From positions 1 through 9,015 of the IMG/VR virus record IMGVR_UViG_2563366903_000010: a stretch of 9,015 nucleotides of DNA; one strand, given 5' to 3'. A program made the translations under genes and the position numbers. The notes under the pieces were generated by a model. It searched no databases and was not told the DNA's origin. It saw nothing but the letters and a program-made list of their open reading frames with translations. Numbering within the stretch: position 1 is the first letter of the stretch; each line of letters opens with the position of its first letter. The DNA is from a virus. Its lineage: Duplodnaviria > Heunggongvirae > Uroviricota > Caudoviricetes. Below are positions 8,041 through 9,015 of the stretch, piece after piece.

Positions 8041-8739
8041 TTACTGCGAAAGTTTATTAATGGAAAGGAAACCGCCAAAATTGCCGACATTCCTGCGCAG
8101 TTCACACCCGCGCATGCACTTGCTGCATCTGTCCTTACGGATATCGGTGGTGGGTTTATCGAACTCATCCGCCACAGCCCCGCCCGTGTAACCACACTCA
8201 TCAGAGCGGTAAGTCCACATACAGGTATTCGCCAGCATAATGCGACCGGGAAACAGCGCCCCGTCCGTCTCGGTCGGTGTGGCCAGCACAAACGAGGCCG
8301 TCATGGCTGTGAGCTGCGACATCTGCTCCACCACCCAGCGGTCCGTCAGCTCCTGCTCCGGGTCAGCCTCCGGATTGCCTGCCACAAAATTCACCGCATC
8401 CAGAAAACGCGCATACACCCGGCGACGAACCACCGTGGCCCCCACCAGGCTCTGCAAATCCTCCGCCATCCCGGTGACCAGCCCGAACAGATTCGACACC
8501 GTCAGTGACGGGCGGGCACTGCTCCCTTTCCCGTTCATCTCAAAGCCGCTGCCGTCAATCGGGTATGCCTGGTACTTCCGCCCCTGCCAGGTGACCGGCT
8601 CCCCTTTTTCATTCAGCTCATTACAGAAAAAATACCGCTCACCGCCCTGTACCGTCAGGTCGATTTCCCAGAGTACCACCCGCGGTGACTGCTCTGATTT
8701 AATCGACTCATTCAGGCTTTCTTCGTTGATCTCCTGCAT
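8041..8739 (-). CDS. L: Tail tip protein L (232 aa from ATG 8739)
   Basis: MQEINEESLNE...VVLWEIDLT..GGERYFFCNE.NEKGEPVTWQGR.YQ.YPI.GSGFE.NGKG...FLSINKLSQ matches remembered lambda L along its full length, including the C-terminus. The listed 250-aa ORF adds 18 N-terminal codons that run through a terminator hairpin and are rejected. Confidence 0.9.
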   Translation of the reverse strand: MQEINEESLNESIKSEQSPRVVLWEIDLTVQGGERYFFCNELNEKGEPVTWQGRKYQAYPIDGSGFEMNGKGSSARPSLTVSNLFGLVTGMAEDLQSLVGATVVRRRVYARFLDAVNFVAGNPEADPEQELTDRWVVEQMSQLTAMTASFVLATPTETDGALFPGRIMLANTCMWTYRSDECGYTGGAVADEFDKPTTDIRKDRCSKCMRGCELRRNVGNFGGFLSINKLSQ

Positions 8740-8752
8740 AAACATCCACCCA

Positions 8753-8777
8753 TAAAAAAAGGGGCGCAATGCGCCCC
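8753..8777 (-). terminator. Rho-independent terminator (minus orientation) ending about 14 nt upstream of the L start codon
   Basis: Stem GGGGCGC (8761-8767), loop AAT, stem GCGCCCC (8771-8777), with an A7 run at 8754-8760 on the plus strand, i.e. hairpin + UUUUUUU on the minus-strand RNA. Confidence 0.65.
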
Positions 8778-8835
8778 TGATAAAATAGTTCAATTAAAAA
8801 ATCAAAAACGATGAAGGTAATAAAATGAAAATTAA

Positions 8836-8852
8836 ATCAGCTAATAGCTGAT
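8836..8852. repeat. Perfect 17-bp palindrome ATCAGCTA-A-TAGCTGAT
   Basis: Read directly from the sequence; intergenic between the porin gene and L. Candidate protein-binding site. Confidence 0.5.
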
Positions 8853-8861
8853 CGCAGTGAC

Positions 8862-8916
8862 CAGTGGAAATATAACTTCCACTGATACAGGCCATCTGTG
8901 AGGGCAGATGGCCTGT
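8862..8916. other. Two adjacent stem-loops just downstream of the porin stop codon
   Basis: CAGTGGAA (8862-8869) / TTCCACTG (8877-8884), and ACAGGCCATCTG (8887-8898) / CAGATGGCCTGT (8905-8916). The second is followed by TATTTATTT on the plus strand. Confidence 0.4.
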
Positions 8917-8935
8917 ATTTATTTACCAGTAATCA

Positions 8936-9015
8936 TCAGAACTGATAAGTCATACCAACAGCAACGATATCATCCGTTGCAATGCCCGCATCCCTGGTAA
9001 ACTTATTCTCATCAA
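8936..9015 (-). CDS. 3' end of an OmpC/NmpC-family general porin gene (C-terminal 25 codons plus stop; gene continues beyond the window end)
   Basis: Minus-strand translation ...[25 protein letters not shown]-stop. The terminal ...VA.G..YQF with aromatic C-terminus and the preceding D.N.FTRDAGI.TD.IVA pattern match remembered enterobacterial porin C-termini (OmpC ...[24 protein letters not shown]). Confidence 0.6.
   Translation of the reverse strand, partial: [25 protein letters not shown]

Follow-up and report, generated by a model that had tools for sequence, protein, structure and literature searches.

The DNA which we have studied (the window) is a stretch of 9,015 nt, positions 1 to 9,015 of the IMG/VR record IMGVR_UViG_2563366903_000010, from a virus of the Caudoviricetes. 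In its last part, read on the minus strand, we find the end of a porin gene, a spacer with several hairpins and the tail gene L. These features are given in Table 1. Gene L has its own Shine-Dalgarno sequence, GGGTGGA (8751..8745, minus strand). A sequence-only reading of this DNA had stated that M abuts L in lambda, and this is also the case in the porin-less phage PhiR12_2: its M stop codon overlaps the L ATG by one base, and the homology of the window with this phage resumes exactly at the L ATG. The same reading had described a porin 3' end, a terminator, a perfect 17-bp palindrome and two more hairpins, and all of them are present at the coordinates which it had given. Its limits need one correction: position 8739 is the first base of the L ATG, so that the intergenic region is 8740–8935.

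Table 1. Features at the downstream end of the porin gene and in gene L
Feature	Position	Strand	Description
Porin gene, 3' end	8936..9015	-	last 25 codons and stop codon TGA (8938-8936); the window stops inside the coding sequence
Spacer (porin stop to L)	8740-8935	-	196 nt; three hairpins and a strong intrinsic terminator
Hairpin 1	8885..8918	-	14-bp perfect stem, 6-nt loop, shortly after the porin stop
Hairpin 2	8862..8884	-	8-10-bp stem
Conserved linker GTCACTGCG	8853..8861	-	single-stranded; mean pairwise identity 0.93 in 9 alleles, highest of the spacer segments
Hairpin 3	8836-8852	-	perfect 17-bp palindrome ATCAGCTA-T-TAGCTGAT
Anti-ompC segment (seed)	8809..8835	-	(T)TTAATTTTCATTTTATTACCTTCATCG; single-stranded; invariant core TTATTACCTT at 8823..8814
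AU-rich variable linker	8779..8808	-	from seed to terminator; one of the least conserved spacer segments (mean pairwise identity 0.69)
Rho-independent terminator	8754..8778	-	stem AGGGGCGCA/TGCGCCCCT, then T7; ends 14 nt before the L ATG
Tail gene L	8041..8739	-	ATG at 8739; Pfam Phage_tail_L, E=2e-92

The stem of the terminator (8778..8760) has 8 pairs, 7 of them G-C, and is invariant across all alleles of the spacer. A terminator scan of positions 7900-9015 found four terminator-like sites, against 1.4 ± 1.0 expected. Hairpin 3 is scored as a weak site of this kind, and hairpin 1 is not a canonical terminator because it has no U-tail. In other alleles hairpin 3 is longer by an insert of 10 or 13 nt, which itself pairs. 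An origin of the hairpins from a REP-like repeat was rejected, since each genome has a single copy of the spacer, always behind this porin. We also discarded two small open reading frames of 5 and 8 codons, which are present in the spacer of allele A only; neither is conserved.

The window holds only the last 25 codons of the porin, and its full-length features come from relatives. The residues encoded at 9013..8939 are identical to the C-terminus of their 387-aa porin (L001). The latter has the features of a general porin: a signal-peptide N-terminus MKKMTVALSAVAAAVIFAAGAQA, a C-terminus TYQF and a match to Pfam Porin_1 over residues 29-387 (E=1.8e-139). Among the porins of K-12 it shares 68% of its amino acids with NmpC and 55–57% with OmpC, PhoE, OmpN and OmpF, and its identity with the porins of Lc/NmpC/OmpD type in sequenced lambdoid phages is 68–69%. 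By these identities we place it as a member of the NmpC/Lc/OmpD clade. It is not OmpC proper, as its identity to OmpC (57%) is below that to NmpC. The database name “porin OmpC” is due to the NCBIfam subfamily model of that name, the only one which the protein passes, and that barely (496.7 bits vs a cutoff of 484). The “additional distinct porin” Ec042-2121 of EAEC 042 (PMC2808357) was not located within the single 042 region inspected.

Gene M and the promoter of the cassette lie beyond position 9015, and for the source genome they are deduced from relatives with 99% identity. The sequence-only reading had left two alternatives, a porin moron at the M/L junction or a truncated prophage next to a chromosomal porin gene, and had proposed an alignment with related prophages to decide between them. 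The two closest relatives, 99.2–99.4% identical to the window, have complete late operons with the porin between M and L; their gene order is terminase, capsid, portal, V, G, T, H, M, porin, L, K, I, J, fibre. Ten further loci also read H-M-porin-L. They include diverged alleles, with 72–85% spacer identity, as well as a Citrobacter farmeri contig and a near-identical duplicate of that contig. The order H-M-porin-spacer-L is found in 12 related loci in total, and a 13th, a contig, starts at the porin. The moron alternative is thus supported by the relatives, while truncation is supported in none of them.

Of 5,426 complete E. coli genomes, 107 or more have the spacer; it also occurs on 31 IMG/VR viral contigs, in the latter every time after the porin stop codon. 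Among the E. coli genome and IMG/VR matches examined there is no porin-spacer unit apart from L. A porin at the M/L junction was found in none of 50,697 phage records. The composition of the cassette is quite different from that of its neighbours: its G+C is 0.246 in the upstream spacer, 0.436 in the porin and 0.372 in the downstream spacer, against 0.55–0.59 in the tail genes H, M, L, K and J. Both M and L are intact in the relatives, with the cassette inserted between the two adjacent genes, deviant in composition and provided with its own terminator. An AT-rich cassette, the homology with PhiR12_2 resuming at the L ATG and relatives with the order H-M-porin-L therefore indicate a moron. Judged from these sequences, the window appears to end in the downstream part of a porin moron, set exactly between M and L in a lambdoid late operon which is complete in all other respects.

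The spacer corresponds to a structured RNA of the sense strand, with conservation and covariation among its alleles. Its predicted fold has an energy of -71.8 kcal/mol, compared with -40.5 ± 4.2 in shuffled sequences (z = -7.45); none of 200 shuffles is as good. In the alignment of alleles 98.3% of the helix cells are paired. Both bases have changed in nine pairs; shuffles have 2.4 ± 1.1 such pairs, with none of 500 reaching nine, and slid controls have 0–4. Four pairs of hairpin 1 keep pairing through two-sided changes across alleles. Hairpin 2 also has four pairs with compensatory changes, and all of its cells are paired; hairpin 3 is the third helix of this test. The RNA is read from the sense strand because it has many G-U pairs, which are A-C mismatches on the opposite strand. 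The sequence-only reading had taken the hairpins together with the terminator as features of the junction. The terminator is real, but the hairpins belong to a conserved RNA which carries a segment complementary to ompC.

This segment, or seed, is one of the two best-conserved parts of the spacer: its mean pairwise identity across alleles is 0.91 and 22 of its 27 columns are invariant. For allele A the predicted duplexes cover positions -13..+11 of ompC (-21.5 kcal/mol) and -17..+9 of ompF (-18.9). In a scan of 300 kb of MG1655, which represents only 6.5% of the genome, the ompC translation-initiation region or leader ranks first among 149,868 windows for both seed alleles, with best energies of -21.5 and -24.9 kcal/mol; such ranks should be read with the caveat that AU-rich RNA readily pairs with AU-rich ribosome-binding sites. 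The margin of allele A is small (-21.5 for ompC vs -20.5 for the next window), and alleles A and B pair best with ompC in different registers. In the same test the genuine MicC seed gives -26.5 at the same ompC site. The translation-initiation region of the cassette's own porin escapes pairing, with -7.5 and -8.6 kcal/mol. In 5,365 of the 5,426 genomes the ompC leader has an identity of 99% or more. In species-representative genomes the seed pattern has just four chance matches, in unrelated MAGs. Rfam gives a full-length but weak match to MicF (RF00033) at 8842..8752, whose 28.3 bits (E=0.036) fall short of the gathering score, 79; MicC (RF00121) reaches 18.2 bits, against a threshold of 90. 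Allele B has no Rfam match to either MicF or MicC.

The comparison of this locus with Lc/NmpC, made in the sequence-only reading, has proved apt: the porin groups in the same clade and its 3'UTR has the layout of IpeX, the 3'UTR of lc/nmpC. The genes lc of phage PA-2 and nmpC of DLP12 also code for a lambdoid-prophage porin, with 68% amino acid identity. In K-12 the nmpC 3'UTR is, like the spacer, about 170–180 nt long when counted from the stop codon up to its terminator, GGGGCG...CGCCCC, and shows three hairpins, a single-stranded segment and then the terminator. The single-stranded segment of IpeX, AACCTTCTGTTATATATTACCCTTTATT, is antisense to ompC -31..-6 (-24.9 kcal/mol), and again ompC ranks first; this shared anti-ompC module was picked up by a sliding duplex scan. 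When a covariance model is made from the M/L alleles, its top matches are the two IpeX regions (31 bits, E about 0.0016), a score which is mostly due to the terminator and to AU-rich composition, with the seed not aligned in register; the next matches are MicF and the antisense of the ompC translation-initiation region. When the spacer and the K-12 nmpC 3'UTR were aligned globally with MAFFT, no convincing homology of hairpins appeared, and there is no IpeX family in Rfam.

There are also differences. The lc/nmpC genes occupy the interval from Q to the lysis genes and are convergent with Q, on the other strand, whereas the present cassette lies between M and L and is co-directional with the late operon. 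Unlike IpeX, it has a 30-nt AU linker between seed and terminator, and allele A covers the Shine-Dalgarno and AUG of ompC, while IpeX covers a region further upstream. Unlike lc/nmpC it has an upstream region with a sequence similar to an ompC-type OmpR box: in the 207 bp before the porin (L001) there is a TTGACA, and 16 nt agree exactly with the ompC OmpR C1 box region. The cassette is best read as a relative, at a new location, of the known Lc/NmpC-IpeX system and not as part of a broken prophage. IpeX has been reported to be made within the porin transcript and to lower OmpC and OmpF, so that the new porin goes up while OmpC and OmpF go down (reviews PMC12197685, PMC8065619). According to published accounts, simple complementarity is not enough to explain how IpeX acts.

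These features suggest a moron which exchanges porins: it would supply a phage porin and repress the OmpC of its host with an IpeX-like RNA in the 3'UTR. We give this reading a probability of about 0.6. The cassette would consist of an AT-rich promoter region (seen only in the relatives), the 387-aa porin and a structured 3'UTR of about 180 nt with its terminator. In a lysogen the late operon would be silent and the cassette transcribed from its own putative promoter, with the terminator keeping RNA polymerase out of L-K-I-J; in lytic growth the terminator would be read through by Q-modified polymerase. The 3'UTR may act like IpeX, its single-stranded stretch pairing with the leader, Shine-Dalgarno and start codon of ompC and more weakly with ompF. 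Translation of the host porins would be blocked by the 3'UTR, whether still attached to the porin mRNA or processed from it. The net result would be a porin swap, phage porin in and OmpC down, which probably changes surface receptors (superinfection exclusion) and permeability, and may in this way be of selective benefit.

An unlikely, though not negligible, explanation is that the 3' end is passive. The porin would then be a lysogenic-conversion gene, the hairpins and terminator would merely stabilise its mRNA and insulate L-K-I-J from the porin promoter, and the complementarity to ompC would be an AU-rich coincidence or a leftover, perhaps from the 5' end of a porin gene in inverted orientation, with no role in trans. 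The anatomy of a moron agrees with it, as do the small energy margins over background and the Rfam matches below threshold; the plus strand of allele A does resemble a decayed porin start, AAGGTAATAAAATGAAAATTAAA. However, the antisense stretch is well conserved while its AU-rich flank drifts, it lies unpaired before a terminator with a U-tail, the arrangement of Hfq-type sRNAs, and three separate sequences (alleles A, B and IpeX) each rank ompC first. Furthermore, repression of OmpC has been reported for IpeX, a 3'UTR with this same layout.

It is much less probable that the last 75–90 nt, seed and terminator, form a separate sRNA gene similar to MicF and MicC, with its own promoter and with hairpin 3 as the terminator of the porin. 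Hairpin 3 is terminator-like with a T-rich tail, the weak MicF alignment mentioned above is full-length, and there is a possible extended -10 sequence, TGaTTTAAT, at 8841..8833. Nevertheless a sigma-70 promoter scan found no promoter-like site on the minus strand of the spacer, the putative -10 has lost its final T in other alleles (TTTAAC, TTTAAG) and IpeX is reported as part of the porin transcript. Finally, a truncated remnant, in which L-K-I-J-fibre borders on a porin gene of the chromosome and M, H and the head genes are missing upstream, would fit a window which ends at 9015 with M not directly visible, but is extremely improbable given the H-M-porin-L order of the relatives, two of them with complete late operons, a porin-spacer unit never found away from L and present on viral contigs, and a cassette composition foreign to tail genes and chromosome alike.

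MicC and MicF, two antisense sRNAs of the chromosome, are linked to porin genes, ompN and ompC. They share with the spacer a short seed, antisense to the leader or translation-initiation region of a porin mRNA and followed by a U-tailed terminator, and each of these RNAs is genetically linked to a different porin gene. Allele B has GTTAT-TACCTTTATTG, to be compared with the MicC 5' end GTTATATGCCTTTATTG, which targets the same ompC site; allele A has TTATTACCTTCAT, to be compared with TTATTACCGTCAT in MicF. On the other hand MicC and MicF are independent divergent transcripts with the seed at their 5' end, whereas the seed of the spacer is internal to a 3'UTR, in an RNA which is phage-borne and below the Rfam gathering thresholds. 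Classical lambdoid morons (lom, bor, HK97 gp15 and sodC among others) are likewise found at a gene boundary of the late region, with a deviant G+C, their own promoter region and terminator, and intact essential genes on both sides. The cassette differs from them in its cargo, a general porin with a putative regulatory RNA, and in its site, a junction where M and L normally overlap. Tight as it is, this junction in the tail operon can accommodate an insert of about 1.6 kb with a terminator.

As for the receptor of the phage itself, the C-terminus of J matches only PhiR12 phages (98%), for which a literature search found no receptor data. The EHEC siphophage phi330 uses OmpC (PMC12502783); no relation to the present J has been established.

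A wider view, to which we give slightly less than an even chance, is that a lineage of lambdoid prophages carries this two-part porin-swap cassette in the tail operon, its 3'UTR pairing in trans with the ribosome-binding region of host ompC (and ompF), and that IpeX acts likewise through an antisense copy of the ompC leader which overlaps the MicC site. If this is true, phage porin genes would as a rule be accompanied by a silencer matched to the host porin which they replace. It would also provide a concrete base-pairing model, open to mutation, for IpeX-type RNAs, whose mechanism was described as unusual. Nutrients and antibiotics enter the cell mainly through porins, which also serve many phages and colicins as receptors and are major surface antigens. 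The phage porin is masked in genome annotation by the name “porin OmpC”, and carriers of the cassette include many STEC and clinical strains. A mobile cassette which brings in a foreign porin and lowers OmpC would alter uptake, receptors and antigens in about 2% of sequenced E. coli.

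The minus strand is the coding strand for the genes of the window. In front of the tail gene L it carries all the elements which the sequence-only reading had described: the end of a porin gene, a terminator, a perfect palindrome and two more hairpins. The spacer between the porin stop and L has 196 nt (8740–8935) and its RNA folds much more strongly than shuffled sequences (z = -7.45).

Features of the porin–L junction and of the insertion between L and K
Feature	Position	Strand	Remarks
Porin 3' end	9013..8939	minus	last 25 codons; TGA at 8938–8936; window ends inside the reading frame
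Spacer hairpin	8885–8918		14-bp
Spacer hairpin	8862–8884		8–10-bp
Linker GTCACTGCG	8861..8853		mean pairwise identity 0.93, highest in the spacer
Hairpin 3	8836–8852		perfect 17-bp palindrome; mean pairwise identity 0.69
Single-stranded stretch (seed)	8836..8809		mean pairwise identity 0.91
AU linker ahead of terminator			mean pairwise identity 0.69
Strong intrinsic terminator	stem 8778..8760		7 G-C pairs, T7 run; 14 nt ahead of L
Shine-Dalgarno sequence, L's own	8751..8745		GGGTGGA
L	CDS 8739..8041	minus	ATG at 8739; Pfam Phage_tail_L, E=2e-92
Ant (Bro-N + P22_AR_C)	6886..5975	minus	L–K insertion
Arc-like protein	7149..6952	minus	L–K insertion
Arc	7176–7445	plus	L–K insertion
ClpP-related protease	7448–7981	plus	L–K insertion

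Two origins had been proposed for this arrangement: a porin moron inserted between M and L, or a prophage remnant which abuts a chromosomal porin gene. The closest relatives are the prophages of 2012EL-2448 (99.2% identical to the window) and JNEC-KY203 (99.4% identical over 5900–9015, L–K insertion included). Both adjoin btsS/yehU and have a complete late region: terminase, capsid, portal, head-tail genes, V, G, T, H, M (identified by Pfam Phage_min_tail), a 387-aa porin, L, K, I, J and fibre genes. In our genome M would lie beyond position 9015; we infer its presence from these relatives, which are about 99% identical. The order H-M-porin-L-K-I-J is found in all five diverged alleles (spacer identity 72–85%) and in two more porin variants that were traced by way of their proteins, one of them a Citrobacter farmeri contig with a near-identical duplicate. 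A third variant located in this way is on a contig which starts at the porin and goes on with L-K-I. PhiR12_2, a phage with no porin, has an M stop and an L ATG that overlap by one base, and its homology with the porin-bearing prophage starts exactly at the L ATG. The G+C of the cassette is 0.246 in the upstream spacer, 0.436 in the porin and 0.372 in the downstream spacer, a compositionally foreign inserted unit when compared with the 0.55–0.59 of H, M, L, K and J. Gene order, intact neighbours and foreign G+C are, at the level of sequence, the textbook signature of a moron; a remnant abutting a chromosomal porin is supported in no relative examined. The junction (porin end, spacer and L start, at least 80% coverage) is found in 91 of 5,426 complete E. 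coli genomes and the spacer by itself in 107; the junction is absent from every record of the phage collection searched. In both closest relatives the annotation marks the portal gene as frameshifted, at the same place (L001:9557–12141 and L002:9559–12143). Whether this is an artefact of annotation or a frameshift that is real or programmed matters for the ability of these prophages to make particles.

The full-length porin has a signal peptide, a C-terminal TYQF and a whole Porin_1 domain (E=1.8e-139). Among K-12 porins it is closest to NmpC (68% identity), followed by OmpC and PhoE (57%), OmpN (56%) and OmpF (55%). About 40 sequenced lambdoid phages encode Lc/NmpC/OmpD-type porins, to which its identity is 68–69%. 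Their porin genes, like that of DLP12, are located on the opposite strand, between Q and the lysis genes; here the gene is found at the M/L junction, a position which none of them shows. The M/L porins form a diverse clade, with 76–87% identity among alleles. PGAP names the protein "porin OmpC" on the basis of a subfamily model which it passes narrowly (496.7 bits vs a cutoff of 484); with this margin and the lower identity to OmpC than to NmpC, we reject an OmpC orthologue.

In most relatives L and K are neighbours; here a second AT-richer insertion (5918–8040, G+C 0.447) stands between them. It is similar to P22 immI, to which a protease has been added; O157 prophages have instead an Arc/Arc/Ant version without protease. 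PADLOC gave no match on the insertion, which is present at full length in only 14 of the 5,426 genomes. At its edge, directly past the L stop, there is a terminator-like hairpin, CCACCGTCAGGTGG, with a T7 run after it (8017–8030, minus strand). Only the PhiR12_x phages, which were obtained by induction of ECOR strains, match the receptor-binding C-terminus of J (834–1733, minus strand) at 96–98% identity; for J of the remaining lambdoid phages listed (Lambda_ev isolates, phage 21, Stx2 phages) the value is about 51%.

We aligned nine spacer alleles. On this alignment the three hairpins and the terminator have 98.3% of their cells paired. Nine pairs are changed on both sides, compared with 2.4 +/- 1.1 in shuffles (none of 500 as high) and 0–4 in slid controls. 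Many pairs are G-U, which become A-C mismatches on the opposite strand: it is thus in the porin-sense transcript that the structure is selected. Of the 27 columns of the single-stranded stretch, 22 are invariant; its core is TTATTACCTT. The leaders of ompC and ompF have GCAGUGGC in common, to which the linker GTCACTGCG (between hairpins 2 and 3) is complementary, but in a register not co-linear with the pairing of the seed. A dispersed repeat was rejected: the spacer unit occurs once per genome, always behind an M/L-type porin. A promoter scan and the nine-allele alignment revealed no conserved ORF or promoter in the spacer.

Rfam offers for the minus strand of the spacer no more than a weak, full-length, MicF-like match (28.3 bits, E=0.036, gathering score 79), which led us to a direct complementarity test. 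The seed has two alleles: A, found in the window (TTTAATTTTCATTTTATTACCTTCATCG), and B (TTTAAYTTTCTGTTATTACCTTTATTG). The predicted duplex with ompC has -21.5 kcal/mol for A (-13..+11) and -24.9 for B (-31..-4, the MicC site and the Shine-Dalgarno sequence). For ompF the values are -18.9 (-17..+9) and -13.4. Those for phoE, ompN, nmpC and L range from -8.1 to -10.9 with A and from -6.5 to -10.0 with B; the cassette's own porin gives -7.5 and -8.6. In a scan of 300 kb of MG1655 (both strands, 149,868 windows) the ompC site ranks first for both alleles and the ompF translation-initiation region ranks ninth for A. For calibration, the authentic MicC seed was scanned likewise and has its best non-self match on ompC (-26.5); a truncated MicF seed fails to recover ompF in these 300 kb, so that the scan has limited power and its margins are small. 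With a longer seed, the observed energy is reached by 5 of 2,000 dinucleotide shuffles for ompC and by 24 of 2,000 for ompF. In 5,365 of the 5,426 genomes the identity of the ompC leader (-81..+30) is 99% or more, therefore the K-12 target stands in for the ompC of the lysogens.

IpeX, the 3'UTR RNA of the lc/nmpC porin gene, is reported to lower OmpC/OmpF (PMC12197685, PMC8065619). When 28-nt windows of the K-12 nmpC 3'UTR were slid along the ompC leader, the segment that stood out was AACCTTCTGTTATATATTACCCTTTATT (about 2398..2425, minus strand, in the DLP12 nmpC locus L003), with -24.9 kcal/mol on -31..-6. It also places ompC first among the 149,868 windows. This segment repeats the ompC leader in antisense almost perfectly, with a 4-nt insertion breaking the copy; it overlaps the MicC site and is similar to allele B (ACTTTCTGTTAT-TACC-TTTATTG) as well as to the MicC 5' end. 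It lies directly 5' of the terminator GGGGGCG...CGCCCC. The nmpC 3'UTR, 96% identical in phage ev207, folds into three hairpins, AACCTTCTGTTATATATTACCCTTTATT and terminator (z = -8.4), the same order of parts as in our spacer. We also built a covariance model from the M/L alleles, from hairpin 3 to the terminator, and searched 112 kb. The top matches are the two IpeX regions (31 bits, E about 0.0016, a rough value in which much of the score is terminator and AU content), followed by MicF (16.6 bits) and the antisense strand of the ompC translation-initiation region. The hairpin sequences of the spacer and IpeX do not align with each other, and given also the origin of that score, homology of the whole 3'UTR to IpeX is unproven. 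As judged from sequence, the functional layout is common to both. The original IpeX abstract reportedly found in simple complementarity no explanation of its action. Published summaries also state that simple complementarity does not account for it. The complementarity with ompC predicted here bears on that claim.

Phage-borne porins and the IpeX idea are already known. In the literature searched there appears to be no description of the M/L porin lineage, of its site within the tail operon, co-directional with late transcription, of the distinct regulatory region of the cassette or of an explicit anti-ompC complementarity, that of IpeX included.

The cassette promoter region in L001, one of the two closest relatives, contains TTGACA and TTTACATTTTGAAACA (L001:18803–18819), which agrees exactly over 16 nt with the region upstream of ompC, in a stretch which we take to be OmpR box C1. 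Another part of the ompC-micF intergenic region is matched at 25 of 29 nt. These matches suggest EnvZ/OmpR control of the phage porin. Anatomy, context, conservation and complementarity of the cassette are seen in the sequences; its expression, the lowering of host porin and the advantage to be gained are inferred. In a lysogen the porin would be synthesized from this promoter, outside the window, and its transcript would stop at the terminator ahead of L, so that the tail genes would remain silent. The 3'UTR, whole or processed, may pair with the ribosome-binding region of ompC (and ompF) and lower the synthesis of host porin. During lytic growth polymerase antiterminated by Q, whose read-through is established lambda biology, would pass the terminator. 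By analogy with PA-2/Lc, the likely benefit is that an OmpC receptor would be lost from lysogens while pore function would be kept.
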